NCBI GenBank assembly: GCA_029262795.1
Contig: JAJCYT010000027.1
Coordinates: 54,962 to 118,961, forward strand
DNA length: 64,000 bases
Source of the DNA: Candidatus Fraserbacteria bacterium
GTDB lineage: Bacteria; Bipolaricaulota; Bipolaricaulia; RBG-16-55-9; JAJCYT01
Direction of reading: 5' to 3'
Below, one piece after another: positions 8,666-59,620 of this stretch (its first letter is position 1; every line of letters starts with the position of its first letter). The translations under genes and the position numbers were made by a program. The notes below the pieces were generated by a model that was given only the letters and a program-made list of their open reading frames with translations, did no database searches and was not told the DNA's origin.

Positions 8666-9307
8666 TTAGAACTGGTTAATAATGGGGCCTCTAAAATCAT
8701 TGAGCCTAATCGGTTTTTGATCAGCAAAGTTTGCGAAAGTACTGGAGTTGTCACCCGTTGTGGTTGATGTTTCTGGTTGCAGGGTGATGTTGCCAGAAAC
8801 ATCAAAATTGTCGACCACACTGACATTATCAGATACCAGTGCATGATCGATTGGGTTGAATGAACTCGGCATCACATTGAGGACCAATGCCATCAAGGCA
8901 ACCGCAGCAGAAGCGGTATACGTCCATGCCAAAACACGCTTGCGGTAACCGGCAAAACCAAACGCACTAAAGTAATCCTGAAACCAGGAGGCACTTTTAT
9001 CAGCTTTGCGCAGTTTGTCAGCCACCTTGCTGCACTGAGCACAAGTTTGAACATGCAGGGAAAGGTCGGTGAGGGTCCATTCAAGCGCCACATCTTCGGC
9101 GCCCATCCAATTGGCTGAATCTGTTTGCGGGCGTTGCCAAAGATCAGGCATGGCATTGCTGTTGTTTAAATATTCTTCAATTTGATCTTTGGATGGATGT
9201 TGCGTGTAATTCTGCTTGCCACGCTTCAAAGGTTCAAATAAATGAATAAATTCTTTAATCAAGTTTTTAGATTCTTGTTCGTTTAAAAAGTTGTTGTCCT
9301 CACTCAT
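8666..9307 (-). CDS. hypothetical single-pass membrane protein with cytoplasmic CxxC zinc-finger-like motif (anti-sigma-like topology)
   Basis: TCAQC motif, central TM helix AVALMALVLNV, Ser/Thr-rich periplasmic tail; no homology assignable. Confidence 0.4.
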   Translation of the reverse strand: MSEDNNFLNEQESKNLIKEFIHLFEPLKRGKQNYTQHPSKDQIEEYLNNSNAMPDLWQRPQTDSANWMGAEDVALEWTLTDLSLHVQTCAQCSKVADKLRKADKSASWFQDYFSAFGFAGYRKRVLAWTYTASAAVALMALVLNVMPSSFNPIDHALVSDNVSVVDNFDVSGNITLQPETSTTTGDNSSTFANFADQKPIRLNDFRGPIINQF

Positions 9308-9792
9308 GCGGTTTCCCTTTCAAGGTTGTCCTGAGCTGCGAGCTGTTGATGAATGGCTTTGATGCGGTCTTTCTCGCGGGTCGGATTAAATTCCTTGCCA
9401 ACCAGCTGAAATACATGACTCCAGTTCAGGTGTGTGCCAACAATTTTTTCCATGGTCAGTGACCTGAAATCGATGGCTTTTTGGTCAATTTTTTCCAACA
9501 GCCAGGCACGTTTGCTCCGATCGACCTTATCGGTGCTGTTACTACACATGTAGATGAGCAGCCCACGAACGGCATCTGCATCGCCATCCTCGACTGCATA
9601 CGCAAAGGAAAGCCATTGCCGTGCGGCATCAACATCTCCGTCCATACACAGAAATTCTTCCATTTCTGTTGGAGGAAGGTTGGTCCCACGAACGATTTGC
9701 TCACCATATGCCAATCGTGCGTATTCAATATTAAGTGCCATAATTGCCTGTAGCTCTTCATCATCATAACACAATTTTAGCAGCATCGTCAA
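9304..9792 (-). CDS. hypothetical cytoplasmic protein, translationally coupled (ATGA overlap) to the membrane protein downstream
   Basis: ORF with overlap 9304-9307; no recognisable sigma-70 motifs. Confidence 0.4.
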   Translation of the reverse strand: MTMLLKLCYDDEELQAIMALNIEYARLAYGEQIVRGTNLPPTEMEEFLCMDGDVDAARQWLSFAYAVEDGDADAVRGLLIYMCSNSTDKVDRSKRAWLLEKIDQKAIDFRSLTMEKIVGTHLNWSHVFQLVGKEFNPTREKDRIKAIHQQLAAQDNLERETA

Positions 9793-9922
9793 GAATTCTG
9801 ACAGATTTGGACAATTGTCGCGAACGTAACCGACATCACCTTCATTCGTAATTCAAGCTGAGTTGTGCTAAGATAGGTCAAAAGAAGGTAGTTGTTATCA
9901 GGCGTTTACAGGCGGTAACACC

Positions 9923-10102
9923 GTGGAGTGGTTGCTTATTTATTTGGTGGTAGGGTTTGTTTTGTTCAGTTTAGGACTAACCCGCGTTGATGAAACGGTT
10001 TGGATTGGGTTTCGTGCGGTTCCCGAAATTTTCTTATTTCAATTGCTCACATTCGTCATCTTCTGGCCATTGTTGATTGCCGTTGAAATGAATCGTCACT
10101 GA
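9923..10102 (+). CDS. possible small two-TM membrane protein (59 aa, GTG start), below ORF-track cutoff
   Basis: in-frame GTG…TGA; translation VEWLLIYLVVGFVLFSLGLTRVDETVWIGFRAVPEIFLFQLLTFVIFWPLLIAVEMNRH is two hydrophobic helices; 50 nt upstream of decarboxylase gene. Confidence 0.25.
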   Translation: MEWLLIYLVVGFVLFSLGLTRVDETVWIGFRAVPEIFLFQLLTFVIFWPLLIAVEMNRH

Positions 10103-10153
10103 AATATTTTATAAAAATTTCTGACGCTCGTTAAATCAATAAACTCATCCCAT

Positions 10154-11617
10154 ATGACAGATTCCTTAGAGAACGCGTCGAATGATCCTAGAGACATTGA
10201 ACAATTTCGCCAATATGGTCATCAGCTTATTGACTGGATTGCCGATTATTACAATCACCCTGAAAATTACCCTGTTTTGTCACAATGTCAGCCTGGAGAT
10301 ATTCAAAAACAAATTCCGACTACACCGCCGCAACAGCCTGAATCACTAGAGAAAATTTTCAAAGACACGGAAGACATTATTGTTCCTGGCATGACCCATT
10401 GGAATCATCCAGGTTTTATGGCTTATTTCAGTGTGTCAGGTTCGCCTACAGGTTTGTTGGGCGAGTTGATGGCAGCGGCCTTCAACGTCAACGCAATGCT
10501 TTGGAAAACCTCTCCTGCTGCAACTGAACTTGAACAAGTGGTGTTGGATTGGCTGCGTCAATTGTTTGGTTTCCCTGAATCTTTCTTTGGTGTCATCCAT
10601 GACTCTGCATCCACATCGACGTTGTGCGCCTTGGTTGCAGCACGTGAAGCAATTGCGGCGTTGGATTCTCGTCACGAAGGGTTGAGCGGTGGTTCGCCGT
10701 TGTGCGTTTACATCTCGGATCAAACCCACTCTTCTGTTGAGAAAGCGGCCATCATCATAGGCGTTGGTCAAAAATATGTTCGCACGATTCCATCAAATAA
10801 TGATTTTCGCATGGATATGGTTGCCTTAGAAGCAGCGATCAAGGCAGACTTTGAGGCAGGCTACCGCCCCTTTGTGGTGGTGCCGACGGTGGGAAGCACC
10901 TCAACCACAAGTGCGGATGATGTGGAAGCGGTTGCAGAGCTTGCCGAAAAATACAATTTGTGGCTCCATGTGGATGCGGCCTACGCTGGTCCCATTGCCA
11001 TGTTGCCAGAAATGCGCCATTACTTTGTGGGATGCGAACGGGCAGATTCATTGGTCACCAACCCGCACAAATGGTTGTTCACTCAAATTGGATGCAGCGT
11101 TCTTTATTGCAGCAAGCCGGATGTTTTAAAGCGTGCCTTTAGCCTTGTGCCGGAATATCTCAAAACCCAAGAAGAAGATGAAGTGGTCAACTACATGGAC
11201 TACGGTGTAGCGCTTGGCCGGCGATTCAATGCACTCAAATTGTGGTTTGTGATACGCTCTTTTGGAGTTGAAGGCATTCAGGGGGTTTTGAGAAAACATC
11301 TTGAAATGGCTCAACAATTACGCAGTTGGGTTGAAGGACATCCAGATTTCGAGATGATGGCACCAGTGCCATTCAGTGTGGTTTGCTTTCGGGCCAAACC
11401 CAATGATTGGTCAGGTTCTGATGAGGATTTGGATATATTAAACGATCAATTGATGCATGCGGTAAACCAAACTGGAAAAGTCTTTTTCTCTCACACCCGC
11501 CTCAAAGGTCAGCTTACCCTTCGTATTGCAATAGGCCATCTTTACATGGAAATAGATCATGTGAAAATTGCTTGGAAAACTATCACCAGCGAACTTCAAA
11601 GTTTACTTGAAAAATAG
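10154..11617 (+). CDS. PLP-dependent aromatic-L-amino-acid (tyrosine/DOPA/tryptophan) decarboxylase, group II
   Basis: NPHKWL PLP-lysine motif, HVDAAYAG, 487 aa group II decarboxylase architecture. Confidence 0.85.
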   Translation: MTDSLENASNDPRDIEQFRQYGHQLIDWIADYYNHPENYPVLSQCQPGDIQKQIPTTPPQQPESLEKIFKDTEDIIVPGMTHWNHPGFMAYFSVSGSPTGLLGELMAAAFNVNAMLWKTSPAATELEQVVLDWLRQLFGFPESFFGVIHDSASTSTLCALVAAREAIAALDSRHEGLSGGSPLCVYISDQTHSSVEKAAIIIGVGQKYVRTIPSNNDFRMDMVALEAAIKADFEAGYRPFVVVPTVGSTSTTSADDVEAVAELAEKYNLWLHVDAAYAGPIAMLPEMRHYFVGCERADSLVTNPHKWLFTQIGCSVLYCSKPDVLKRAFSLVPEYLKTQEEDEVVNYMDYGVALGRRFNALKLWFVIRSFGVEGIQGVLRKHLEMAQQLRSWVEGHPDFEMMAPVPFSVVCFRAKPNDWSGSDEDLDILNDQLMHAVNQTGKVFFSHTRLKGQLTLRIAIGHLYMEIDHVKIAWKTITSELQSLLEK

Positions 11618-23144: not shown

Positions 23145-25988
23145 CTAAAGGAACGGAATGCCCAAGCGCAGATACGGTTCGAAAATGGTGAAATCTGCCG
23201 GGCCATTGCTGCCAAGCAACGAAATGGCTACACCGGCAGTCACATTGAAAGACAACAAGCCGCCAAACATCTGACCACTGGCAGTGGCTTCAAACCCACC
23301 TTCAGCCAGTGTCATGTCGATATCGAACTGGTCAAAATCATCCCAGGTCTGTGCCGCTGCTACATACACATTTCCTCGGATCTCGCGGACCAAAGCCAAA
23401 CCGGCCACCGAATAAGCCATGTCGCGCTGCATGGGGAAGCTGACGCTTAAACGGGCCGAGCCTTTGTATCGCCCTGGAAAAGTGAGTTTTCGTTTCGCGC
23501 CTTCATCTGTGAAATCATAAAAACTGTTGAGTTCAGCAAGGTTAAAATAAAGGAACTCAGGCAATTCACCCATGCTGTAGCCAAAATCCGCCTGCAGATC
23601 TAACGTCACATTTGGGAATAGCAACGATTGAGTCACCGCTGCTGCATTGAGTCTTGTGAATGAAAATGGATCGACAAGAGCATTTGCCTGAAACACATGG
23701 CGTGCATTGAGCAACTGACTAAACGTATAGGTGATACCGCCATAGTTGACGGGGGTCTCGTCAAAATTTAAGCGCCTGGAAATCGACAGACGCAAGCGAT
23801 GACTAGGTTCCCAATATTGGCCCTGAAGGCCCAGGTCCGGGTGTTCGTATAATGTTGCGTTCCAGCCAAATTCGGCCAGCACATCGTCGCCAAACACCAG
23901 TGCGCCATCAATGGTATTGCCTCGACCTTGATTCATCACAAAGGCAATCAAGCCGTCGGCCAGCAGCCAGCGGTAATCGAGCACGTAGCCGCCTTCAAGG
24001 ATTTGTGAGATGGGGTCAAAGCGGATCAAATACGAATCCAGGGGCACATCCACTCCGCCATCGGGAATGATGCGCAAGCGGGTGGGAAAATAATTGTCGA
24101 TACGTGCCACATCCGGCGTCCAGCTTTCGGGGTCTACCTGTACTTCCAACAACGGTGCAGGGAGAATAAAAGTCAGTGTTTCCGTTTCGGATTCAGGTGT
24201 CCAGGTTTGGCGCGTGAGCGTGCCATCTTCACTGAGCAGCACCACTTCCACAGGCAGTCGGCCTTCGCCTTCATGCTTCAAGCTGACGGTGGTGGTATAA
24301 GTGCCATCATCATTTGGATCGGTTTTGACACGTTCAATGCCATAGTCGATAGAGGCATCACCATACACCCAATCCTCAAAGAAGGCGTCCATATCTAGGC
24401 CGGAAATATTTTCAGCTTGCGTTTTTAGTAAGTCGGTATCCAGAATATTGTGGTTGAATTTTTCATAAGTTTCCAGCAACAATTGATCCATGCTCTCGCT
24501 GCTGATCACGCCTTCCAAAGCACGAAGGACCAAATAGCCTTTGTTATAAATGCGTGTTTGATTGTTGTTGGCAAATTCAACCGCCTGCTGTGGTTTAACC
24601 AATGCTTCATCAAATCGATCCCGATGAACGACCAAATAAGGCAACTCACTAAAATGTTGTCGCAGATTGAGATAACCAAATTGCGAATCAATCAGGTTTT
24701 CTAAAAAACCCTTTCTTTTAACCTGAATCACATTTGGGCGATTGTTACCGTATTTTTCCTCAAAATAGCTGATCGAAAGATATTCAGCAAAAGCTTCGGA
24801 TAAGAAATTTTCGGCGTTCAAGTCGGTGCTGACGCCAATACCCCACCACATATGGGCGATTTCGTGCGCCAGTAAATATTCTAAAAAACGATCGGCCATG
24901 CCGGCCACGGTGAGGTCTTTCTCAGCAAACCCACTGTTGCCCAAAATGATGAACCCATCGGCCGCCATGCCAAAATAACCACTGGCCCAGGAGGTGACGA
25001 TAGACAGTTGCTTATACCCATAGGCACCACGATTTTCGTTGTAACTGTCTAAAATTTCCACAGCATAAGTGGCAATCTGGCGGGCAGCCGCTTCTTCACT
25101 GGGCAAATAATAAACATGAACAGGAATGTCCTGGTTGGGCAGCGTGTAGCGTTTGAAGTCCGGCGAAATGCTTAGCGGAATCGAACGAACGGGTACATCA
25201 CTTTTCAGCAGCAGCGTTTTCGTGCCAGCGAGTTCATCGACCGAAGTTTCCTCCTGCGTGTCCAGACCAGTGACTACTGTGTAATGATCCGGCACAGTGA
25301 AACTCATTTCATACAGTGCGGCAGGATAGCGCCAGCGCACATAATCTTGACCCTCGCTATGATATTTTCCATCCACCAAATCAGTGGCAGTGACGGCCAC
25401 CGGGTTCCAGGCAAAACGCCAGGTATAAATGTTTTGATGAAAGCTCTGGTCGGTGTTGAGACTGCTGGGAAACCTGGTTTCAAATTCCACCACAACGGTT
25501 ATTGCTTGACCTGGCGCCAAAGTGTTGGGCAAATCTACCTTGAGTAAATTCTGCTCAAGTGAATAACTTTGAAAGGTTTCTGGCCCCGCTTCATAAGACC
25601 AAGAAAGCGCATTGCCAGCTTCATCGATGACGTCATATACATCCAGCCAAGAAGCATCAAACCCCTTGTCGTAACTGGAGTCAACAATCACCGGACTCAA
25701 ATTTGGATTTGGCTCACGATTTAAATTCGGTGCCAAAATAAAATACAAAGCATCCAGATCAGTGTCTCCGTTGTTGACATACACCACCTCTTGGGTGGCT
25801 TTGATGGATTGAGAATAAATGTCTAACTCGGCCTCAAGGGTGTATTGGGTCTGTTCCCCCTCTTGCGCCAACACAGTTGGCACATAAAGCACGGTCAGAA
25901 TAAATACAAAAAGCCCAAAAAATCGCACAGATGTTCCTCCTTCTCTGTTGTCCTTTACCAATGTAACGAAAAATGCCAAGTCACTCAA
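23145..25988 (-). CDS. secreted M1-family (gluzincin) zinc metallopeptidase fused to ~300-aa C-terminal outer-membrane-barrel-like domain
   Basis: signal peptide; HEIAHMWWG…(18 aa)…EAFAEY = HEXXH-X18-E of aminopeptidase N family; C-terminal third has alternating hydrophobic/aromatic beta-strand pattern ending …YLRLGIPFL. Confidence 0.65.
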   Translation of the reverse strand: MSDLAFFVTLVKDNREGGTSVRFFGLFVFILTVLYVPTVLAQEGEQTQYTLEAELDIYSQSIKATQEVVYVNNGDTDLDALYFILAPNLNREPNPNLSPVIVDSSYDKGFDASWLDVYDVIDEAGNALSWSYEAGPETFQSYSLEQNLLKVDLPNTLAPGQAITVVVEFETRFPSSLNTDQSFHQNIYTWRFAWNPVAVTATDLVDGKYHSEGQDYVRWRYPAALYEMSFTVPDHYTVVTGLDTQEETSVDELAGTKTLLLKSDVPVRSIPLSISPDFKRYTLPNQDIPVHVYYLPSEEAAARQIATYAVEILDSYNENRGAYGYKQLSIVTSWASGYFGMAADGFIILGNSGFAEKDLTVAGMADRFLEYLLAHEIAHMWWGIGVSTDLNAENFLSEAFAEYLSISYFEEKYGNNRPNVIQVKRKGFLENLIDSQFGYLNLRQHFSELPYLVVHRDRFDEALVKPQQAVEFANNNQTRIYNKGYLVLRALEGVISSESMDQLLLETYEKFNHNILDTDLLKTQAENISGLDMDAFFEDWVYGDASIDYGIERVKTDPNDDGTYTTTVSLKHEGEGRLPVEVVLLSEDGTLTRQTWTPESETETLTFILPAPLLEVQVDPESWTPDVARIDNYFPTRLRIIPDGGVDVPLDSYLIRFDPISQILEGGYVLDYRWLLADGLIAFVMNQGRGNTIDGALVFGDDVLAEFGWNATLYEHPDLGLQGQYWEPSHRLRLSISRRLNFDETPVNYGGITYTFSQLLNARHVFQANALVDPFSFTRLNAAAVTQSLLFPNVTLDLQADFGYSMGELPEFLYFNLAELNSFYDFTDEGAKRKLTFPGRYKGSARLSVSFPMQRDMAYSVAGLALVREIRGNVYVAAAQTWDDFDQFDIDMTLAEGGFEATASGQMFGGLLSFNVTAGVAISLLGSNGPADFTIFEPYLRLGIPFL

Positions 25989-26021
25989 AGCGCTCTTAAG
26001 CTGTTTCCATAAAACCTTTGT

Positions 26022-26250
26022 CTTCTAACCCCCAACCCCTTTACATAAGGGGGCACGATTGGGCTGCGGGGATGGATTCTTTGATATTCGATAGTTTATT
26101 CTTTTCGGTTTCTTTTATAGGAGTATTAAGGCCTTTTTGGTTTTCAGTTAGAATATGCAGAAAAGTTGAGAACAGACATTTTCAGGCATATCGTAGCCCC
26201 CTTTTGATTTTAGAAGGGATCCCTTTCTAGATAAAGGGGGGGGAAAGCTT
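26022..26250. mobile_element. MITE-like repeat, copy B (left TIR intact, right end degenerate)
   Basis: left end AACCCCCAACCCCTTTACATAAGGGGGCACGATTGGG and internal GCGGGGATGGATTCTTTGAT are homologous to copy A at 57689; right end GTAGCCCCCTTTT…AAGGGGGGGG partially matches. Confidence 0.5.
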
Positions 26251-26261
26251 TCCCCCATTAG

Positions 26262-27545
26262 TTACGCCTCGACGTCTGTCTCTACTTTCTGTTTAGGAAT
26301 GATTTTTAATCGAACCGTTTGGATTTCTCTATCGCTGGCGGATTCGACCTTGAGGTGTGCGCCATCGACAGTCAGCGATTCGCCGGTTGCGGGGATTTCT
26401 TCGAGTCGGTTGAGGATCAGGCCACTGATGGTGGTGCCTTCCTCGGTGGGCAAGGTGAGATTGAGTTCATCATTGATGTGGTCAATTTCAGTGACACCTT
26501 CTAGCAGATAGGTGCCATCGGGCAAATGTTGAATTTCTTCTTCGGGTGTGTCGTATTCATCGTGGATTTCGCCTACAATTTCTTCCAAAATGTCTTCAAT
26601 TGTGACGATACCGGACATGCCGCCATACTCATCCATGACGATGGCCATTTGTTGTTTGGAACTTTGAAAATCACGCAACAAATCATTAATAGGTCTGGAT
26701 TCAGGGATAAACGTTGCCGTGCGAACCAAATCTTTTAAGTCGATTGAATTGTCACCACAGTGAAGCAAGTCCTTCACATGCAAAATGCCGATAATGTTGT
26801 CCGGTTCTTCCTCATAAACGGGATACCGAGAATGTTCTTCTTCTTTAACAATGGCTCGAACCTCACCCAGCGTGGCGGTGACTTCGATGGTTTCCACCTC
26901 GGTACGGGAGACCATCACTTGTTTGGCAACAAGATCATCAAATGCAAAAATGCGGCGGATCATGTCCACTTCTTCTTCTTCAATCAGGCCGCGTTCTTCA
27001 CCCATTTCAAGCAGCATGGTGATTTGATCTTCGCTGACTTCAGGTTGTTCCTGATCACGCAAGTGTTTGGGCATAATGCCCACGATGAGGTTGGTGATAG
27101 CTTTAAATAAAAAGATCAACGGTGTTAATAATCGTCTGAGAGCGACCATCGGGCGGATGAGCACCAGAGTCAATGTTTCTGGATTGTTTTTGCCGATAGT
27201 TTTGGGAGTGATTTCACCAAAAATGAGCACATAAATAGTCATGAAAAATGTGGCGATCAAGCCTGCGGTGGTTTCGCTCATTCCTGCGAGCAGATCGATG
27301 GTCATGATGGTGGCAATAGAACTGGCCAAAATATTGGAAAAGTTGTTGGCAATGGCAATGGTGGTCAGCAGGCTGTTGGGATCGTCCATTAAAACCTGCA
27401 ACGCCTTGGAATGACGGGGGCGCTCTCGGATCAAGACACCAATCCGAATCTTTTCCATAGAGGTCAGGGCAATTTCCGCTGATGAAAGAAAGGCAGAAAA
27501 GCCAACGAGTACGAGAAGTAAAATAGTTCCTATTAGAGGATCCAT
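26262..27545 (-). CDS. DUF21/CNNM-CBS-CorC_HlyC family protein (hemolysin-like Mg/Co efflux-type)
   Basis: 4 N-terminal TM helices, tandem CBS region, C-terminal CorC/HlyC domain, 427 aa. Confidence 0.85.
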   Translation of the reverse strand: MDPLIGTILLLVLVGFSAFLSSAEIALTSMEKIRIGVLIRERPRHSKALQVLMDDPNSLLTTIAIANNFSNILASSIATIMTIDLLAGMSETTAGLIATFFMTIYVLIFGEITPKTIGKNNPETLTLVLIRPMVALRRLLTPLIFLFKAITNLIVGIMPKHLRDQEQPEVSEDQITMLLEMGEERGLIEEEEVDMIRRIFAFDDLVAKQVMVSRTEVETIEVTATLGEVRAIVKEEEHSRYPVYEEEPDNIIGILHVKDLLHCGDNSIDLKDLVRTATFIPESRPINDLLRDFQSSKQQMAIVMDEYGGMSGIVTIEDILEEIVGEIHDEYDTPEEEIQHLPDGTYLLEGVTEIDHINDELNLTLPTEEGTTISGLILNRLEEIPATGESLTVDGAHLKVESASDREIQTVRLKIIPKQKVETDVEA

Positions 27546-34437: not shown

Positions 34438-34544
34438 TTAATTAAAAACATGTGAACCTTTTCGACTAAAACATAAAAACTTGCTTTCGCAAACTCGTTT
34501 GAAAATTCTTAAGTCAATTTGTAAGCTAGCTTTAACAAAAAGCA

Positions 34545-34632
34545 ACGGGGAGCCTGAACATGACAGGCTGAGAGGAAGCTTCGGCTTCGACCCTTAGAAC
34601 CTGATCCGGATCATGCCGGCGGAGGGAATGCA
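34545..34632 (+). promoter_or_regulatory. TPP (THI-box) riboswitch
   Basis: …GGGGAGCCTG…CTGAGAG…ACCCTTAGAACCTGATCCGGATCATGCCGGCGGAGGGAA matches THI element consensus (CUGAGA … ACCUGAUCUGGAUAAUGCCAGCGUAGGGAA); sits ~115 nt upstream of thiamine-binding protein gene. Confidence 0.8.
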
Positions 34633-34747
34633 ATGGTTTCTCAAAACATTTCAACACACACTCCACTAAAAGCACAACACAAACTGGTTCCTTGGGTCAC
34701 TCATCTGTTTTGCTGACGGCGCTTCAAATCAACCTTGAGGTGATGTC

Positions 34748-35776
34748 ATGCGCTTACTTTCATTTAGTCTGATTGCTCTGTTTTTGCTGAGCCTGGGAGC
34801 ATTGGGACAGGAAAACACATTGGTGATTTACACCTACGACAGTTTTGTGTCGTTTGGTCCGGCCACGGAGATTGAAGCACGCTTTGAAGCCGAAACAAAT
34901 GCGGATGTTCAGTTTGTGGCAACGGACGATTCCCGCTCCATGCTGGCCCGATTGTTGACCGAGCGCGACAGTGGCGGCACGCCTGCAGATGTGTTCATTG
35001 GCGTGGAAGTCAACGATTTGTCTACAGCGACGGAAGACGGCGCGTTTATTTCCTTGAACGAAGATGAGATTCCTGCCCTACAGCAGATTGACTCGACTAT
35101 TCGTTTTGACGCGCAAAATCGATTGCTTCCTTACGAGCATGGATTTATTACGCTGGTTTATGATGCTGAAGCCATCAGCGAAGATGAGTTGCCCCAAACG
35201 TTTGCAGACTTGGCTGACCCTCGCTTTCGTGGAAAACTGTTGGTGCAAGACCCTCGAACCAGCAGTCCGGGGTTGAGTTTTTTGCTCTGGACAATCAATC
35301 AATTTGGAGATCCTGGCTATCTGGATTATTGGCGCGAACTGTTTCCCAACATCCTGACGGTGACGCCAGGCTGGACAGAGGCGTTTACGTTGTTTCTCCA
35401 AGGAGAAGCGCCGATTCTGGTTAGCTTTTCTACCGATCATGCGTTTGATGTGATCATCAACGACAGTGACCGCAATCGCATATTGCTGTTGGAAAACCAA
35501 GGGTATCGAACCATTTTTGGCGCCGGTGTGGTGGATACCAGTGATCAGGTGGATTTGGCCAAACAGTTTGTTAATTTTCTGTTGAGTGAAGAAATACAAA
35601 CCCTATTACCCACCAGTGAGTGGATGTTTCCTGCCAATCCCAATGCGTTATTGCCTGTGGCGTTTTATCAAAATGCAGTGCGTCCGCCTGTGGCTGCCTT
35701 CGTTGATGCGGATACGGTAAGTGATAATTTGGACCGTTGGCTGCGCGCATGGGCAAACTTGGCTGTGGGTCAGTAA
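34748..35776 (+). CDS. thiB: thiamine/TPP ABC transporter periplasmic binding protein
   Basis: signal peptide; blocks LVIYTYDSF, DPRTSSPGLSFLLW, GWTEAFTLFLQGE parallel E. coli TbpA (LTVYTYDSF, DPRTSTPGLGLLLW, GWSEAYGLFLKGE). Confidence 0.85.
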   Translation: MRLLSFSLIALFLLSLGALGQENTLVIYTYDSFVSFGPATEIEARFEAETNADVQFVATDDSRSMLARLLTERDSGGTPADVFIGVEVNDLSTATEDGAFISLNEDEIPALQQIDSTIRFDAQNRLLPYEHGFITLVYDAEAISEDELPQTFADLADPRFRGKLLVQDPRTSSPGLSFLLWTINQFGDPGYLDYWRELFPNILTVTPGWTEAFTLFLQGEAPILVSFSTDHAFDVIINDSDRNRILLLENQGYRTIFGAGVVDTSDQVDLAKQFVNFLLSEEIQTLLPTSEWMFPANPNALLPVAFYQNAVRPPVAAFVDADTVSDNLDRWLRAWANLAVGQ

Positions 35777-41017: not shown

Positions 41018-42970
41018 TTATTCATTTATTGAAGGATTTAGTTCAAAAGCTTCAAGTTCGGCCATGGCCGCTTCCCATTGTTCGAGCAGGCTAGTCTGTT
41101 CAGCTTTGGCCTGCTCATATTGTTTGCTTAAGGTTTGAACTTTTTCCAAATCCTGATTGTAGCTGGCTTGTTCCATTTCTTTTTCGAGCAGGGTGATTTG
41201 CTCTTCAAGTGTGTTCATTTGCGTTGATAACTCAACTTCCTGTCGCTCCAGCTTGCCTCGTTCGCGATCTTTAATTCGTTTTAATTTACCAGGAGACAGT
41301 TTCTTTTTTGTTTCTTCTTGTGGTTTTTTACCTGAGGATTCAAGAGCAGATTTCGTTTGGGAAGGTTGGTCTTTCTTTCTAAGATAGAAAGCATAGTCGC
41401 CTTTATAAACATGAAGCTGTTCCTCTTTGACTTCCCAGATTTGGGTGGCGATGGTTTGAATAAAATATCGGTCATGAGACACAAACAGGATGGAGCCAGG
41501 GAATTTGATCAACACTTCTTCAAGTGTTTCTCTGGATGGAATATCCAGATGGTTGGTTGGTTCGTCGAGCAGAAGAAAGTTGCCGCCAAGTTGAGAAAGC
41601 CGAGCCAATGCGACACGGCTTCGTTCACCACCGGACAACATGCCCAGTTTTTTGAAAACGTCATCTCCTCGGAATAAAAACTTTGCCAGCAATTCACGCG
41701 CTTTGGAAATGGTCCAGCCATCTTGATCGATCAATGAATCAACCAAGGTCATGTCTCGATCAAAATAGCCCCAAGCGGTTTGGGCAAAGTAAGCAGGTTC
41801 AACAGCATGACCCCATTCAACTTCGCCTCTCAATGTGGAAAGCTGTTGCACCAATGTTTTAAGCAGCGTCGTCTTACCACTTCCATTGGGGCCAATCAAC
41901 GCAATGCGTTCATTGCGATCCATGATGGCATGCGACGCATTAAACAGCTTTGTTTCGCGAGCATCGGCGGTGGCAGGGTAGCCAATGTCGATATCCTGAA
42001 GGCGAAAAATACGCTTTCCGCTTTCACGTGGGAATTGAATTTCAAAAGAAATCTGTTTTTCTTTTTCGGGTTTTTCCAACGTCTCTGTTTTTTCAATCAT
42101 CTTGCGGCGCGACTTGGCCAGGTTGGTGGTTTTTTTATCATAAATATTTTTTTGCACAAAATCTTCAGATTTTTTTAACCAGGCCTGTTGTTCATAATAA
42201 GCTTCAAGTTGATGCTTCAATTCTTCTTCTCGTTGAGGCACATAATCGCTGTAGTTGCCGGTATAAAGTTTGAGCTTTTTATGATTGATCGCCCAAATTT
42301 TGTCCACCAAGCGATCGAGCAAGTGCCGGTCATGGGATGAAATGATGTAGGCTTTTTTCCATCGAGACAAATAATCTTCTAGCCATTCCACAGAATCGAC
42401 ATCCAGGTGGTTGGTCGGTTCGTCTAACAACAAGACATCCGGTTCTTCAAGCAATAGTTTTGCCAAAGCAGCGCGTCCGGCTTGGCCACCACTGAGATGT
42501 GAGACCGGTTGTTGTGCATCTTCCTGAGAAAACTTTAAACCGTTGAGAACCGAATGAATCCGGCTTTCATAGCTATAGCCGCCGCCTGTTTCAAATGCAT
42601 GATGGAGTTCGTCGTAACGACGAATTACGTCATCCTTGCCTGAGGAGAGTTCAGGTTCCAAATCTTGCATTGAGTTTTGAAGTTCCAGCAGATTCGAAAA
42701 AACACTTTTCAATTCTTCGTAGAGAATACGATTACTATCGAGTTGCGACTCTTGAGTCACATAACCAATCTTGGCATTGCCAACAATTTGAGTGGTACCA
42801 GAGCTGGCTTCTTCATTGCCCGTCAAAATATTTAGAAGTGTGCTTTTACCTGCGCCATTTGGCCCGATCAGGCCAATATGCTGCCCCTCTCCGACCTGAA
42901 CAGATACATTCTCCAGGACGGATTCACCGCCAAAATCCTTGTTCAAGTTTTGGGCAATAATCAGGGACAT
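41018..42970 (-). CDS. ABC-F family ATPase (Uup/EttA-like, two ABC domains plus C-terminal coiled coil)
   Basis: two Walker A (GPNGAGKST, GPNGSGKTT), two LSGG signatures, K/E-rich linker, C-terminal coiled-coil. Confidence 0.88.
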   Translation of the reverse strand: MSLIIAQNLNKDFGGESVLENVSVQVGEGQHIGLIGPNGAGKSTLLNILTGNEEASSGTTQIVGNAKIGYVTQESQLDSNRILYEELKSVFSNLLELQNSMQDLEPELSSGKDDVIRRYDELHHAFETGGGYSYESRIHSVLNGLKFSQEDAQQPVSHLSGGQAGRAALAKLLLEEPDVLLLDEPTNHLDVDSVEWLEDYLSRWKKAYIISSHDRHLLDRLVDKIWAINHKKLKLYTGNYSDYVPQREEELKHQLEAYYEQQAWLKKSEDFVQKNIYDKKTTNLAKSRRKMIEKTETLEKPEKEKQISFEIQFPRESGKRIFRLQDIDIGYPATADARETKLFNASHAIMDRNERIALIGPNGSGKTTLLKTLVQQLSTLRGEVEWGHAVEPAYFAQTAWGYFDRDMTLVDSLIDQDGWTISKARELLAKFLFRGDDVFKKLGMLSGGERSRVALARLSQLGGNFLLLDEPTNHLDIPSRETLEEVLIKFPGSILFVSHDRYFIQTIATQIWEVKEEQLHVYKGDYAFYLRKKDQPSQTKSALESSGKKPQEETKKKLSPGKLKRIKDRERGKLERQEVELSTQMNTLEEQITLLEKEMEQASYNQDLEKVQTLSKQYEQAKAEQTSLLEQWEAAMAELEAFELNPSINE

Positions 42971-43072
42971 ACCAGCACCTCGGTCTCACTTGCTTGTGAC
43001 CTTCATAGTTTAATCAGAGGGGTGATAGAAAGAAAGACATAATTAAAAAACTAGAATAATAAATAATGGAAA

Positions 43073-43265
43073 GACTCTAATCCCCCAGCCCTCTTTGTGT
43101 AAAAGGGGGAACGGTTTGACTGTGTAGGCGATTTGTAGATGTGGAATATTCTTCTAGTTGAATATTAATCTGGCTTTCACAAAGAGAAATGTAACGAAAA
43201 ATAGAATTCACTTTCAAAAAAAATGTAGCCCCCTTGAGACCAAGGGGGTTGGGAGTTTGAAGCCT
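43073..43265. mobile_element. MITE-like repeat, copy C (both TIRs recognisable, internal sequence divergent)
   Basis: left AATCCCCCAGCCCTCTTTGTGTAAAAGGGGGAACGG and right GTAGCCCCCTTGAGACCAAGGGGGTTGGGAGTTTGAAGCC match the TIRs of copy A including flanking TTTGAAGCC. Confidence 0.45.
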
Positions 43266-43460
43266 TGTAAATTTTTAAACCCTTTAAAAGGGAGGGCGGG
43301 AAGCCGCAGGCTGAAGACTGAAAGAATCTTTTGGGAGATCCATTCCAGTTAAGGGGAATGGTCTTAAAGTTCCAGTATCCTGCCTCCGGCTTCCTCGGGG
43401 CGTAGGGTGGAGCATTTGAAGCGGGTTGCTGCTGGGTTTTTCGTTGTTGAGAGAAGGCGT

Positions 43461-44204
43461 TTAGTTGAGTTGCTCCTTATGCCCATAGCCCTTTTCGCGT
43501 AATTGTCTCTCATCTGTAATCGTAATATAACGTCCTTTTTTCAGGAGTCCGTTGGAATAAAACATGCTTAACATCATGGTCACGTTGGTACGTGTGGCAC
43601 CAATTAAATCGGCCAGATCTTGATGTGTTAAACGACAATCAATCTGAAGCCCTTGTGGGGTATGATGACCGTGTGTGTCTGAAAGATGTAGCAATACACG
43701 AGCCAGACGCGTTGGCAAATCTTTAAATGCCATGTCTTCCAGCTTGTGTTGAACGCTGCGGGAACGGCTGCCAATCAAGTTCAAAATTTCGAACATTAAG
43801 CGTGGATCTCGCTTGGCTTGATCCAGCAGGCGGTTGCGATCAGCGGCAACCACTTCGGTGCTTTCCAGTGCTTCAGCCAGCAGTTCGCGCTTGTCCACTT
43901 GAGTCAGTGACAACTCGCCAAACAATTGCCCTTCACCAAAAATATCCAAGGCCAATTTGCGGCCAGTTTCATCGAGGTAGCTCAATTTGACGCGGCCCTT
44001 CTTGATCCAATAAATCATGTCATTTGGATCGTCCAATCCATAGATGAGATCTCCGCGTTTGAAATGAAGCAAAACCCCACGTTGTTCCAAAATTTCGCTA
44101 AAACGAGACGTCAACGGTATCACGTGAGTCCTCCCTTGTCCGTTTTTTTGTAAACGACAATATTTTTTTGATCCCCCTAACAAAACCCCTTCGACACGAA
44201 ACAC
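43461..44204 (-). CDS. Crp/Fnr family transcriptional regulator
   Basis: cNMP-binding beta-roll (GELSL), C-terminal HTH …QDLADLIGATRTNVTMMLSMF…; true start may be slightly downstream of annotated Met. Confidence 0.8.
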   Translation of the reverse strand: MFRVEGVLLGGSKKYCRLQKNGQGRTHVIPLTSRFSEILEQRGVLLHFKRGDLIYGLDDPNDMIYWIKKGRVKLSYLDETGRKLALDIFGEGQLFGELSLTQVDKRELLAEALESTEVVAADRNRLLDQAKRDPRLMFEILNLIGSRSRSVQHKLEDMAFKDLPTRLARVLLHLSDTHGHHTPQGLQIDCRLTHQDLADLIGATRTNVTMMLSMFYSNGLLKKGRYITITDERQLREKGYGHKEQLN

Positions 44205-49494: not shown

Positions 49495-49840
49495 TTTTTC
49501 AATTTTGGCTATAGTTTTCTTGAAGTTGTACTTTGAGGTCATTTTGTTGGCTTTTTCGTTGTTCTGAGTGAATCTTTTTGATCAAACTATTTCAGGAGAT
49601 ATTTGCCGTTGTGATCAACATCGGCTCAGTGGTGAGCGTATCCAGGCTGAAAAAATGTCTTGGGCGTCCTATTTGCTGTACTTGTGCTTAGTGGAAGATA
49701 TAATAGAGTTAGACAAAAAGGGTTGAAAATAAAGCCCCCACGGCTACTATACCAGCGAGCGACATCTACGTCCTCTCGCTACCCTCTCACCACAGCCGTG
49801 GGGGTCTATTATTAAAATGTTGTGAAACTGAAAAAAATAA

Positions 49841-49870
49841 ACCGAAAGAGCGCAACAACGCTCTTTCGGT
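49841..49870 (-). terminator. hairpin + U-tract on minus strand (candidate terminator of the minus-strand operon ending at 50116, ~250 nt 3' UTR)
   Basis: ACCGAAAGAGCG/CGCTCTTTCGGT 12-bp stem; on minus strand followed by TTTATTTTTTT. Confidence 0.4.
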
Positions 49871-50115
49871 TAACTTTACTTCCCTGAAGAAAAAATAATA
49901 ACCAACATAAAATGTAATAATGACTTTCTAACAATTTTAGGTCCGGAGTTGTATCCCCCACCTCGCGGACAAATCTACTCTGTGTCCATACGGTAACGCG
50001 ATTTTCTTCGGATGTCAAACTGATATTTGTCCAGTTTTATGTGTGTCTTTAATCGTGTATTTTCTAATCGCGAAAGACACGCCTATTAACTTTGAATAGG
50101 GCTTTATATCCGCAA

Positions 50116-56875: not shown

Positions 56876-57619
56876 TTAAAGTCCTGATTTAAGTCGATTA
56901 TACAGAGGGGCAGGCAGGTTCACAGCTTGCATCTTTTCGCAGGTTTTTTCAACATTATATTTCAGTCGATGCCAGGTGACTTTTTCAGCATCATCTGTCT
57001 TTTCATAGATCACCAAACTCAAACGCCAATCTCCGTCACGAGGCTGCCCCACACTGCCAGGGTTGATGAGATAACGCTCATTGGCATTGAGGTATAGGGT
57101 TTCTTCATCGCGGATGAAGCCTCCCTGAATGTCGCCGCCATTTTCAATGAACAACGTGGGATGATGAGAATGACCAAACCAGCAAATGCGTTCGTCGAAA
57201 TGATGAAAGTTATTGTACGCCACTACGCGCTCCGTCATATATTCCCAAATGGGATCACGTGGGCTGCCATGCGTAACAAAAAAATCCTGATAAGGTGTTT
57301 TTAAAGGACGTTGCTTCAAAAACACTTCGCTACTTTCGTTGAGTTGTTCCTCCGACCAACGTAACGCAATGCCTGCATTGCCATTGAATCGTTCAATGTG
57401 GATCGTGCCAATGGCTGCTGCATCATGATTGCCCAACACACAACAACCGCAATGTTTCTGAATCAGCGTCACACACTCATTTGGCCAAGGACCATACCCC
57501 ACCACATCACCACAGCAAATGATGTCGTGAACGCCTTCGGACTGAAGAAATGCCAGGGCGGTTTCTAGAGCCGATAAATTTCCATGAACATCGGAAATGA
57601 TCCCATACTTAATTTGCAT
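56876..57619 (-). CDS. calcineurin-like metallophosphoesterase
   Basis: ISDVHGN, GDVVGYG, GNHD motifs. Confidence 0.8.
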   Translation of the reverse strand: MQIKYGIISDVHGNLSALETALAFLQSEGVHDIICCGDVVGYGPWPNECVTLIQKHCGCCVLGNHDAAAIGTIHIERFNGNAGIALRWSEEQLNESSEVFLKQRPLKTPYQDFFVTHGSPRDPIWEYMTERVVAYNNFHHFDERICWFGHSHHPTLFIENGGDIQGGFIRDEETLYLNANERYLINPGSVGQPRDGDWRLSLVIYEKTDDAEKVTWHRLKYNVEKTCEKMQAVNLPAPLYNRLKSGL

Positions 57620-57688
57620 GGCTGTAGGGTAGCTAAGATTGAACTTAATTTCAAAAGAAGATTTTTAGCCAAAATATAGATTTTAAAA

Positions 57689-57909
57689 GCTTTCAAATCC
57701 CCCAACCCCCTTGAGATCAAGGGGGCACGATTGGTTTGCGGGAGGATATTCTGATTTGAGTAAGTTGATTCTTTCTAAAAAGGAGAACTATCAAAAGAAA
57801 AATGTTTTGTTCTTGAACTTTGCCAAGAAAAATATGCTTAAAAGCAGAATCCACCTTCGAAGTCCAAATCGTGCCCCCTTTAGAAAAGGGGGTTGGGGGA
57901 TTTGAAGCC
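57689..57909. mobile_element. MITE-like repeat, copy A (best preserved; ~45-bp terminal inverted repeats each containing a C5/G5 hairpin)
   Basis: left GCTTTCAAATCCCCCAACCCCCTTGAGATCAAGGGGGCACGATTGG; right CCAAATCGTGCCCCCTTTAGAAAAGGGGGTTGGGGGATTTGAAGCC is its near-perfect reverse complement; no coding capacity. Confidence 0.6.
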
Positions 57910-58000
57910 TTTAACCTATTTCTCTTTCTTCTGACCAAATTCTTTTCCAAGTTGTTTTACCCTCCGTGGTGTTTAAACTTGGAGGACCAAGGAGGCACCG

Positions 58001-59620
58001 ATGAAATGGAAGTTTGCCAAACCTAGCAATGATATGGATGCGATTCCCAGTTATGCGCCTGGGACGCCTGAACGCGAGCAACTGACGAAAGAGCTGGAGC
58101 GCATCAAGCAAAACACTGAAGAAATTCCACTGATTATTAATGGACAAGCAGTAAAGACAGGTGAACTTGAGGATGTGGTTTGTCCTCACAATCACCAGCA
58201 AGTGTTGGCCAAGGCGCATTATGCAGGTGAGAAGGAATTGCAGCAGGCCATTGATACCGCCCTTGAAGCGCAAAAATCCTGGGCAGCGCTGGATGGCTAT
58301 CAGCGTGCAACCATCCTCAATCGTGCGGCTGACTTGGTGGCGGGGCCTCGACGAATTGAACACATTGCGGCGATCATGGCCAATCAGTCAAAAACGCCGT
58401 TTGAGGCGGAGATTGATCTGATCGAGCTCATTGATTTTTGGCGTTTTAATGCTTACTACATGCAGGAAATCTATGAACAGCAGCCTGACCAATTCGATGG
58501 TGAAACCAATCGCTTTGACTGGCGTCCGTTGGAAGGGTTTATTCTGGCGATTTCGCCATTCAACTTTTATGCGATTGGTGGCAACCTGCCCACTGCACCT
58601 GCATTAGTGGGCAATGTGGCTTTGTGGAAGCCATCCCCAACTGTGATTTTTTCCAATTATAAAATCATGCAGGTACTTCAGGAGGCAGGCTTGCCTGATG
58701 GTGTGATTAATTTCGTGCCATTCGATGTCAAGCACAGTGATTTATTGATGAACCATCGCGACTTGGCAGGACTTCATTTCACCGGAAGTTATCAGACATT
58801 TACCCATCTCTGGCAGAAGATCGGCCAGAACCTTCCCAACTATAAAAACTTCCCTCGAATTGTTGGCGAAGCTGGCGGCAAAGATTTTATCCTCGTTCAT
58901 CCATCCGCAGATGTGGGCGCAGTCGTCGCAAATTCAGTTCGTGGTGCGTTTGAATACCAGGGCCAGAAATGTTCAGCAGCATCTCGAATGTACGTGCCGG
59001 AAAGTTTGTGGGATGAGATCAAATCAGAGATGCTGACTCAATTGAAAAACTTTAAACACGGTCCTGTTGAAGACCTCAGCATGGCGATGGGCGCGGTGAT
59101 TTCCGAAGCTTCTTTCAAAAAAGTATCTTCCTATTTGGATTATGCCAAGCAAAATACGGATCAATATGAAATCCTTCACGGTGGAAACTGTGATGATTCT
59201 CAAGGCTGGTTTGTCGAACCGACGTTGATTCAGACCACTGACCCTAAAGGTCAAGTGATGTGTGAGGAAATCTTTGGACCAGTATTAACCGTTTATGTCT
59301 ATGCAGACGCCGATTATGAAGCGACGTTGAAGTTGGTTGATGAAGCCACGCCTTATGCACTCACCGGTGCAATCTTTGCGCAGGATCGCTATGCAATTGC
59401 TCAAGCAGAAGAAGCACTCCGGTTCTCCGCAGGGAATTTTTACATCAATGACAAACCCACTGGGGCCATTGTTGGACGCCAGCCCTTCGGAGGCACTCGC
59501 CATTCCGGTACCAATGACAAAGCTGGATTCTGGCTCAATGTTTCCCGTTGGATGAGTCCACGTACGATTAAAGAAACGCTCGTTCCTCCGTTGAGTTGGG
59601 AACGTCCTTACATGGAATAA
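58001..59620 (+). CDS. L-glutamate gamma-semialdehyde (1-pyrroline-5-carboxylate) dehydrogenase, ALDH superfamily
   Basis: 539 aa; ALDH core with catalytic Cys region (…GQKCSAASR…) and P5CDH-type N-terminal extension. Confidence 0.85.
   Translation: MKWKFAKPSNDMDAIPSYAPGTPEREQLTKELERIKQNTEEIPLIINGQAVKTGELEDVVCPHNHQQVLAKAHYAGEKELQQAIDTALEAQKSWAALDGYQRATILNRAADLVAGPRRIEHIAAIMANQSKTPFEAEIDLIELIDFWRFNAYYMQEIYEQQPDQFDGETNRFDWRPLEGFILAISPFNFYAIGGNLPTAPALVGNVALWKPSPTVIFSNYKIMQVLQEAGLPDGVINFVPFDVKHSDLLMNHRDLAGLHFTGSYQTFTHLWQKIGQNLPNYKNFPRIVGEAGGKDFILVHPSADVGAVVANSVRGAFEYQGQKCSAASRMYVPESLWDEIKSEMLTQLKNFKHGPVEDLSMAMGAVISEASFKKVSSYLDYAKQNTDQYEILHGGNCDDSQGWFVEPTLIQTTDPKGQVMCEEIFGPVLTVYVYADADYEATLKLVDEATPYALTGAIFAQDRYAIAQAEEALRFSAGNFYINDKPTGAIVGRQPFGGTRHSGTNDKAGFWLNVSRWMSPRTIKETLVPPLSWERPYME

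Follow-up and report, generated by a model that had tools for sequence, protein, structure and literature searches.

Correia elements of Neisseria and ERIC elements of enterobacteria duplicate TA. They are nearly complete palindromes, non-coding MITEs of 100 to 300 bp that lie between genes and number from tens to hundreds per genome (PMC10969869; PMC3184786). The criteria given for MITEs are terminal inverted repeats, a flanking target duplication, no transposase, a stable hairpin and IS-like ends (PMC3184786). REPs carry an unpaired GTAG, or a GYRG-type variant, to one side of their palindrome (PMC3733652; PMC3116915). In GTAG REPs, GTAG abuts a GC stem of 6 to 13 bp; subfamilies whose stems differ by complementary changes have been described, as have structured loops of great length, inverted homo- and heterodimers, variable spacers and many singletons, and RAYT genes were proposed as the mobilizers (Di Nocera et al., 2013; PMC3733652). 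In REPINs the inverted doublet is the replicating unit (Bertels and Rainey, 2011; PMC3116915).

We analyzed a stretch of 64,000 nucleotides (the 64-kb window) of a Candidatus Fraserbacteria genome, referred to here as genome W. Three look-alike sequences in the window are genuine copies of one small non-coding palindromic intergenic repeat. As in Correia and ERIC elements, TA stands at either border, the long inverted arms fold into a long hairpin, and related species have copies at orthologous sites in common; like Correia, the family is without a known autonomous parent. Unlike either of them, each arm contains a separate, strong GC hairpin footed by GTAG or CGTG, and the length of the element is variable. 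The comparison with Correia and ERIC is by their descriptions and established no sequence similarity; a search of plasmids and one of viral contigs with the exact arm pattern gave no match.

With GTAG REPs and REPINs the family shares a GC-rich stem of 8 to 9 bp, a short loop, GTAG at one foot of the stem (in 10 of 32 arms), complementary stem subfamilies, a variant with a long structured loop and many singletons. The inverted homo- and heterodimers (tags inward, TT type) fold as one hairpin (fold z -8 to -9), and the intergenic location, the absence of a visible target duplication and the long vertical persistence are REP-like as well. The unit, however, is ~105 nt long vs 20 to 40 nt for REPs, with a 20-nt outer tail and inner boxes conserved; the commonest tag is CGTG; the two hairpins lie ~120 to 200 nt apart vs the 20 to 100 bp reported for most REP dimers; and no RAYT gene was located in the ~216 kb searched. 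Subterminal hairpins with a short guide-like foot motif are also found at IS200/IS605 ends and in the "TIRtron" repeats flanking RAYT-like genes (PMC3733652), and TIRtrons likewise form long inverted-repeat families, some of them partly self-complementary, single or dimeric. The two ends of IS200/IS605 elements are not inverted copies of each other, unlike the present arms, and no IS200/IS605-type gene was found in the ~216 kb searched. The family is new and lineage-specific; its MITE/REP-doublet type is already familiar and it represents no new kind of system. With it, a lineage of which there are metagenomes alone gains a clearly bounded family of repeats.

Three Copies in the Window

The three copies and their arms are as follows (gene neighbors by Pfam).

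Copy A, 57684 to 57913, no strand: full element, 230 bp including the bordering TA
Copy A left arm, 57687 to 57739, plus strand: nhmmer E 1.8e-15, local fold -9.5 kcal/mol; C5 at 57699-57703, AA, C5 at 57706-57710; stem-loop 57706-57725, then CACGATTGG
Copy A right arm, 57861 to 57911, minus strand: nhmmer E 4.8e-15, local fold -11.9 kcal/mol, z -3.3; stem-loop 57874-57892, then TT and G5 at 57895-57899
Copy A neighbors, divergent: Metallophos gene, 56876 to 57619, minus strand; P5C-dehydrogenase-type Aldedh gene, 58001 to 59620, plus strand
Copy B, 26020 to 26256, no strand: full element
Copy B left arm, 26020 to 26067, plus strand: CACGATT type, nhmmer E 7e-14
Copy B right arm, 26184 to 26256, minus strand: GTAG type, degenerate outer end, loop with a nested extra hairpin of ~28 nt
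Copy B neighbors: stop of the CNNM/CorC gene (26262 to 27545, minus strand) and start of the M1 peptidase gene (23145 to 25988, minus strand)
Copy C, 43070 to 43266, no strand: full element
Copy C left arm, 43070 to 43122, plus strand: decayed hairpin GGGGGAACGG, nhmmer E 1.4e-7, weak fold
Copy C right arm, 43228 to 43266, minus strand: GTAG type, nhmmer E 1.2e-7, minus-strand T-run after the hairpin
Copy C neighbors: stop of the Crp-like gene (43461 to 44204, minus strand) and start of the ABC-F gene (41018 to 42970, minus strand)

An earlier note, made from the sequence of the window, had reported three intergenic copies at these places, and both the chance controls and a profile search agree with it. 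The outer arm motif AAGGGGGTTGGGGGATT, allowing up to three mismatches, has 5 matches in the window vs 0.18 expected, a count reached in 0 of 100 shuffles. The hairpin core CCCCTT-N6-AAGGGG also has 5 matches (0.12 expected), and no shuffle reached this count. Searching the 64 kb with the arm profile detected arms at the loci of copies A, B and C exclusively. The neighbors named in the note (M1 peptidase, ABC-F and P5C dehydrogenase) were confirmed by Pfam and by the names of the Aldedh homologues, which are called P5C dehydrogenase. Its location of copy A (57689-57909) was right and is extended to 57684-57913 when the bordering TA is included. For copy B the shared left arm was correctly recognized and the right arm (26184-26256), also present, was missed.

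Copy A is a homodimer in which both arms are of the CACGATT type. Its arms read AAAGC(T)TTCAAATCCCCCAACCCCCTT-loop-AAGGGGGCACGATT(T)GG and the outer 27 nt are 93% complementary. The whole of copy A folds into a single long hairpin (-57.1 kcal/mol as DNA, z -8.1; -103.4 kcal/mol as RNA, z -9.4) and the local hairpin of an arm taken by itself folds at -8 to -12 kcal/mol. The C5/G5 hairpin that had been noticed in each arm is there: the arms carry CCCCC-AA-CCCCCTT(loop)AAGGGGG. A search of Rfam 15 gave no match at the gathering score. Sub-threshold matches to plant miRNA-precursor models (50 bits vs 230 required) are due to the long-hairpin shape. The nested-hairpin variant of the copy B right arm recurs in a copy from a related genome (genome J, locus L093, 215-251; 70% identity over 230 nt). 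The L093 copy was rejected as the ortholog of copy B since its neighboring gene is unrelated.

Structure of the Half-Unit and Its Hairpin

Thirty half-elements from the window and genome J were aligned; for the outer flanks, a profile of their own was made from the full set of 33 arms. The half-unit is ~105 nt long with a sharp outer end, and two inverted halves plus a variable center make up a full element of 197 to 292 bp. The arm length of ~45 bp in the earlier note was thus too short, as arm homology extends over ~105 nt per side. The half-unit consensus starts with (GG)TAAAGGCTTC(T/A)AATCCCCCAACCCCC, followed by TTT-loop-AAA-GGGGG, then CACGATT or CTACRRTT, nG-CTGCG and two TTCT boxes ~20 nt apart. 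The stem extension of the hairpin consists of TT plus two variable pairs and the loop is 4 to 6 nt. Conserved outside the hairpin are a 20-nt tail and the two inner TTCT boxes. Two arm types were distinguished, GGGGGCACGATT vs GGGGGCTAC(A/G)(A/G)TT, which combine freely: both arms of copy A belong to the first type (CACGATT/CACGATT), the majority of copies have one arm of each, and the genome J ortholog of copy C is CTAC/CTAC. In doublets the tags face inward (tail-to-tail), homo- and heterodimers both occur, the center is variable in length, and the two arms of an element are 76 to 93% complementary.

The outer end of the arms is (GG)TAAAGGCTTCTAATCCCCC. TA borders 25 of 33 arms, including both ends of copy A, and GG often stands before the TA, within the inverted repeat. 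Outside the bordering TA there is AT-rich background, and conservation falls at position -13 to -15.

Of 32 arms, 10 have GTAG as the tag at the hairpin's inner foot, 18 have CGTG and the remaining 4 another sequence. In the same 32 arms the 9-pair stem is 93.4% paired. Next to the loop, two pairs covary (TT/AA, GA/TC, AA/TT, CA/TG, TA/TA), with 25 cells showing two-sided changes; this number was reached by 0 of 500 shuffles and the signal vanishes when the partner is slid. G.T and A.C mismatches in the stem are balanced (13 vs 11), so there is no sign of a strand-specific RNA constraint. The stem compensation may come from template-switch repair in quasi-palindromes, for which selection is not needed.

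Another change within a hairpin was seen in the left arm of copy C. Read on the minus strand of the window in both genomes, the loop is ACAC in W (43086-43110) and GTGT in the genome J ortholog (L109, 9862-9901), and the stem is kept. Such a loop flip is as expected of recombination or template switching inside the hairpin.

Copies in a Related Genome

The exact arm pattern has 0 matches in 185,579 GTDB species genomes. In JGI metagenomes it was found in 16 stretches, of which 14 lie on two contigs of one sample, genome J (3.66 Mb), 12 of them on one 3.2-Mb contig. The remaining two stretches were discarded as unrelated GC-rich chance matches. Genome J is a relative of genome W, with 89% identity in ABC-F, 87% in CNNM and long synteny. 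The further copies anticipated in the earlier note were found there, mostly at non-orthologous sites: the loci L085-L100, which were chosen by the pattern, are not orthologous to the window. The closest named homologues of the organism's proteins are from Bipolaricaulota/Acetothermia at 47 to 70% identity, and a search for relatives with the Aldedh protein gave a best match of 60% identity, too low to be of use for comparison.

The arm profile detected 28 arms in the fetched genome J stretches, which together with 5 in the window make 33. These arms represent 10 full elements (two of them the orthologs of copies B and C), 11 half-elements and 3 elements truncated by the ends of the loci. For at least one arm that looks solo (L088), a decayed partner is recognizable in the sequence. 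All copies in the window and the genome J loci are intergenic. Among 18 independent sites, 10 are between tandem, 5 between convergent and 3 between divergent genes; there is no orientation rule, and the arm types occur in either order. DNA chosen independently of the pattern has ~1 element per 20 kb (the 64-kb window has 3, and ~37 kb of syntenic genome J DNA have 2), which suggests, by rough extrapolation, copies on the order of 100 per genome. Genome J carries dozens of dispersed copies or more.

Logan contigs end inside the right arm of copy A, at window positions 57879 and 57902. Short-read assemblies of both W and J break inside the arms, as expected of a repeat, and the family thereby explains assembly breaks at particular intergenic sites of these organisms.

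In locus L089 of genome J, two inverted half-elements (8832-10907) bracket a 2-kb segment that contains only genes for an ABC-transporter binding protein and a permease. The arrangement could be due to chance, a split element, or gene capture between two arms.

Filled and Empty Sites in Relatives

Three relatives were compared with genome W at the sites of the window copies. Lineage E is 92% identical to W in Aldedh, 86% in CNNM and 81% in ABC-F; lineage S is 93% identical in Aldedh and 87% in CNNM; and the relative in L108 is 80% identical in Aldedh. About 96 kb of DNA from E, S and L108 contain no copy of the W/J family, just related-looking hairpins.

The intergenic gap at site A is 381 nt and filled in W. 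S (100 nt) and L108 (139 nt) are both without the element, and the gap of 226 nt in E holds a different repeat. Lineage S has also lost the ancestral flank and has an extra deletion at this site, and the flanks are too diverged for exact junctions. The element at site A was either gained in W specifically or lost elsewhere. At site B the gap is filled in W (273 nt) and J (363 nt) and empty in E (122 nt) and S (127 nt); the downstream flank GACAAAGGTTTT is kept in all four and the C-terminus of CNNM is unchanged. At site C both W and J have the element; the arms are 76 to 83% identical and the interior 60%. The E contig, which ends 231 nt upstream of the ABC-F gene, has the repeat peculiar to E there.

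Copies B and C stand at the same sites in genome J and are therefore old and vertically inherited. In copy B the left arms of W and J are 88% identical and the interiors align at ~65%. Overall, the orthologous copies are 76 to 88% identical in their arms and 60 to 65% in the interior, with the exception of the composite right arm of copy B (46%). On these comparisons, the family was active before the W/J split and has been inherited since. The filled and empty sites can serve as markers to distinguish sublineages. The earlier note had suggested aligning filled and empty sites and had named as its alternative a set of conserved regulatory hairpins at orthologous positions, with no further copies. 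The comparison shows sites A and B empty in relatives, that is two of the three window sites, so the loci are not orthologous conserved hairpins only, even with copies B and C conserved in J.

The right arm of copy B differs between the genomes: in W (26184-26256) it is the nested-hairpin variant, in J (L113, 11314-11353) it is plain, and the rest of the element aligns. The difference suggests that copies have exchanged sequence, or that the loop received an insertion once W and J had split.

Lineage E carries its own palindromic repeat at sites A and C (L101, 9815-9948; L111, 1-231 and 4944-4975), whose copies have the core GGATTCTGCCGA..CCTCAGTCG.GCCT.CGCAGGAATGA in common. In L101 (site A), and not at site C, it is joined to the hairpin CCCCTCTCCCTTGGGGAGAGGGTTGGGGTGAGGGGG, inside which there are two matches to GGGGWSAS, a motif reported in inverted repeats that flank RAYT-like genes (PMC3733652). 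Assemblies also break inside the E repeat, and a W-like arm variant is present at the end of L111.

Search for a Mobilizing Enzyme and a Target Duplication

No transposase and no parent IS with the same ends was found in ~240 kb (the 64-kb window plus ~175 kb of genome J loci). A phmmer search for RAYT/IS200 proteins among six-frame ORFs of ~216 kb (the window, genome J loci L085-L100 and four short W contigs) gave nothing better than E 0.46; the queries were approximate sequences of YafM and IS200 TnpA and the DNA covers ~4 to 6% of each genome. The 10 ORFs adjoining arms that were checked by Pfam are ordinary genes with no transposase among them. The bracketed segment of L089 (8832/10907), the sole widely spaced inverted pair, was considered as an autonomous parent and rejected, as it encloses the transporter binding protein and permease.

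Nine full elements were examined for direct repeats of 2 to 8 bp at all offsets. No consistent target duplication was found, and none of at least 3 bp. The TA at the borders is palindromic and often preceded by GG, so it is indistinguishable from the element's own end and may or may not mark a TA duplication.

Origin of the Elements

We conclude that the family is very probably a trans-mobilized, non-autonomous repeat of the MITE/REPIN class. The earlier description as a non-coding, multi-copy inverted-repeat family of intergenic DNA that relies on functions supplied in trans is supported. Its label "MITE-like" holds for the inverted repeats, the dispersal and the lack of coding capacity; no duplication of at least 3 bp was found at 9 full elements, and no parent IS in ~240 kb.

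Within this class, a REPIN-like element moved by a RAYT-type enzyme is tentatively proposed and slightly favored over a classical TA-duplicating MITE. The elements would behave as REP doublets (REPINs), each arm being a GC-rich hairpin with an unpaired GTAG, or the variant CGTG, at the inner foot. A transposase of the RAYT type (IS200-like, HUH/tyrosine), with its gene elsewhere in the genome, would recognize the arms as hairpins of single-stranded DNA and would move or copy the doublet without a target duplication. Half-elements would be broken or decayed doublets, and local effects, such as the copy C arm and T-run resembling the terminator of the upstream gene, would be incidental. The stem pairing, the tags, the homo- and heterodimers, the structured-loop variant and the lack of a direct repeat of 3 bp or more are consistent with this proposal. 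Against it, the conserved unit of ~105 nt has five times the length of a REP (20 to 40 nt), its outer end is sharp, exact GTAG is found in just 10 of 32 arms with CGTG the commonest tag, and the ~216 kb contain no RAYT/IS200-like ORF, with ordinary genes beside the arms. REPs tend to avoid gaps between divergent genes, and 3 of the 18 independent sites are in such gaps. The compensatory stem changes are explicable by template-switch repair without selection, and the sharp TA-bordered outer end (25 of 33 arms) would also suit a TA-duplicating DDE transposon.

The latter is the basis of a second reading, possible though doubtful, in which the family is a classical MITE: it would have arisen by internal deletion from an IS whose DDE transposase (e.g., IS630/Tc1-mariner-like) duplicates a TA target. 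It would be moved by cut-and-paste by a full-length IS elsewhere, or by one now lost (cf. Neisseria Correia), and the arm hairpins would be incidental or serve as binding features for the transposase or a host factor. The long terminal inverted repeats, the sharp outer boundary where conservation drops at -13 to -15, the TA at 25 of 33 arms and at both ends of copy A, the size of 197 to 292 bp with no coding capacity and the existence of filled and empty orthologous sites all fit such an origin. So do the long hairpin formed by the whole element, a classic MITE trait (PMC3184786), and the two conserved subterminal TTCT boxes, which are putative protein-binding sites. This origin is weakened by the absence of a parent IS or transposase from the ~240 kb of window and genome J DNA and by the lack of a duplication of at least 3 bp. 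Furthermore, the palindromic TA is inseparable from the element's own end (GG precedes it as part of the inverted repeat), and the widely varying length, with half-elements as common as full ones, is unusual for copies of a single master.

A narrower form of the REPIN-like proposal looks unlikely at present: a replicator of a little-studied candidate lineage whose GTAG/CGTG-footed hairpin sits in a half-unit of ~105 nt and which would co-evolve with a lineage-specific RAYT or "TIRYT"-like tyrosine transposase. If true, such a co-evolving transposase would explain why sister lineages have different, similarly built hairpins at the same sites. A RAYT-type gene found beside arms would show that the REPIN/RAYT link also holds in a deep-branching candidate group and with arms of far greater length; an IS parent, if found, would make the family an ordinary MITE. 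Either outcome would leave the understanding of such elements unchanged.

Regulatory Role

Promoter and terminator scans at copies A, B and C gave results at chance level, except for the right arm of copy C. The general terminator or promoter role suggested for the elements in the earlier note therefore found no support beyond this one arm with its T-run. The consensus arm hairpin continues into CACGATT, CTACRRTT or TTGGGGG, not into a T-run. The form of an intrinsic terminator (GC hairpin followed by a T-run) is found in the copy C right arm alone, and the T-run is kept in the genome J ortholog. This arm is plausibly the terminator of the Crp-like gene, as predicted from its sequence.

In the last reading to be weighed, the repeats would be structural or regulatory hairpins selected by the host, not mobile now and perhaps never transposed as a unit; they would act as mRNA-end stabilizers, terminators or sites for nucleoid proteins or gyrase, and would be spread and homogenized by recombination or gene conversion. 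The retention of copies B and C at orthologous W/J sites with arms more conserved than the interior, the stem maintained by compensatory changes, the conserved terminator-like arm of copy C and the different type of copy B right arm in W and J, which would reflect exchange between copies, can be cited for it. It is quite improbable, since there is no consistent orientation or position (10 tandem, 5 convergent, 3 divergent), most arms lack a T-run and the scans are near chance, wobble pairs show no strand bias, and the presence or absence at sites A and B and the dispersal to unrelated loci need a spreading mechanism.

Other Features of the Window

Three other non-coding features were noted. 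The first is a 620-nt gene-free gap (49495-50115) between SecA and a DsrE-like gene, which is ~90% identical to genome J over ~470 nt; other intergenic DNA of W and J is ~62% identical, far below this value. On the minus strand it contains hairpin plus T-run sites at ~49838-49878 and 49733-49806. The gap has no match to an Rfam family, tRNA or tmRNA, and is a candidate for one or two small RNA genes. Lineages E and S have an acetyltransferase gene after SecA instead. The second feature lies just outside copy C, at 43267-43432, downstream of the Crp-like stop. This stretch of ~175 nt is 86% identical between W and J and contains the GC-rich sequence GGGAGGGCGGGAAGCCGCAGGC. The third, at 34536-34644, is an ordinary TPP riboswitch (Rfam RF00059, 72.8 bits) located upstream of a solute-binding protein gene (34748-35776).
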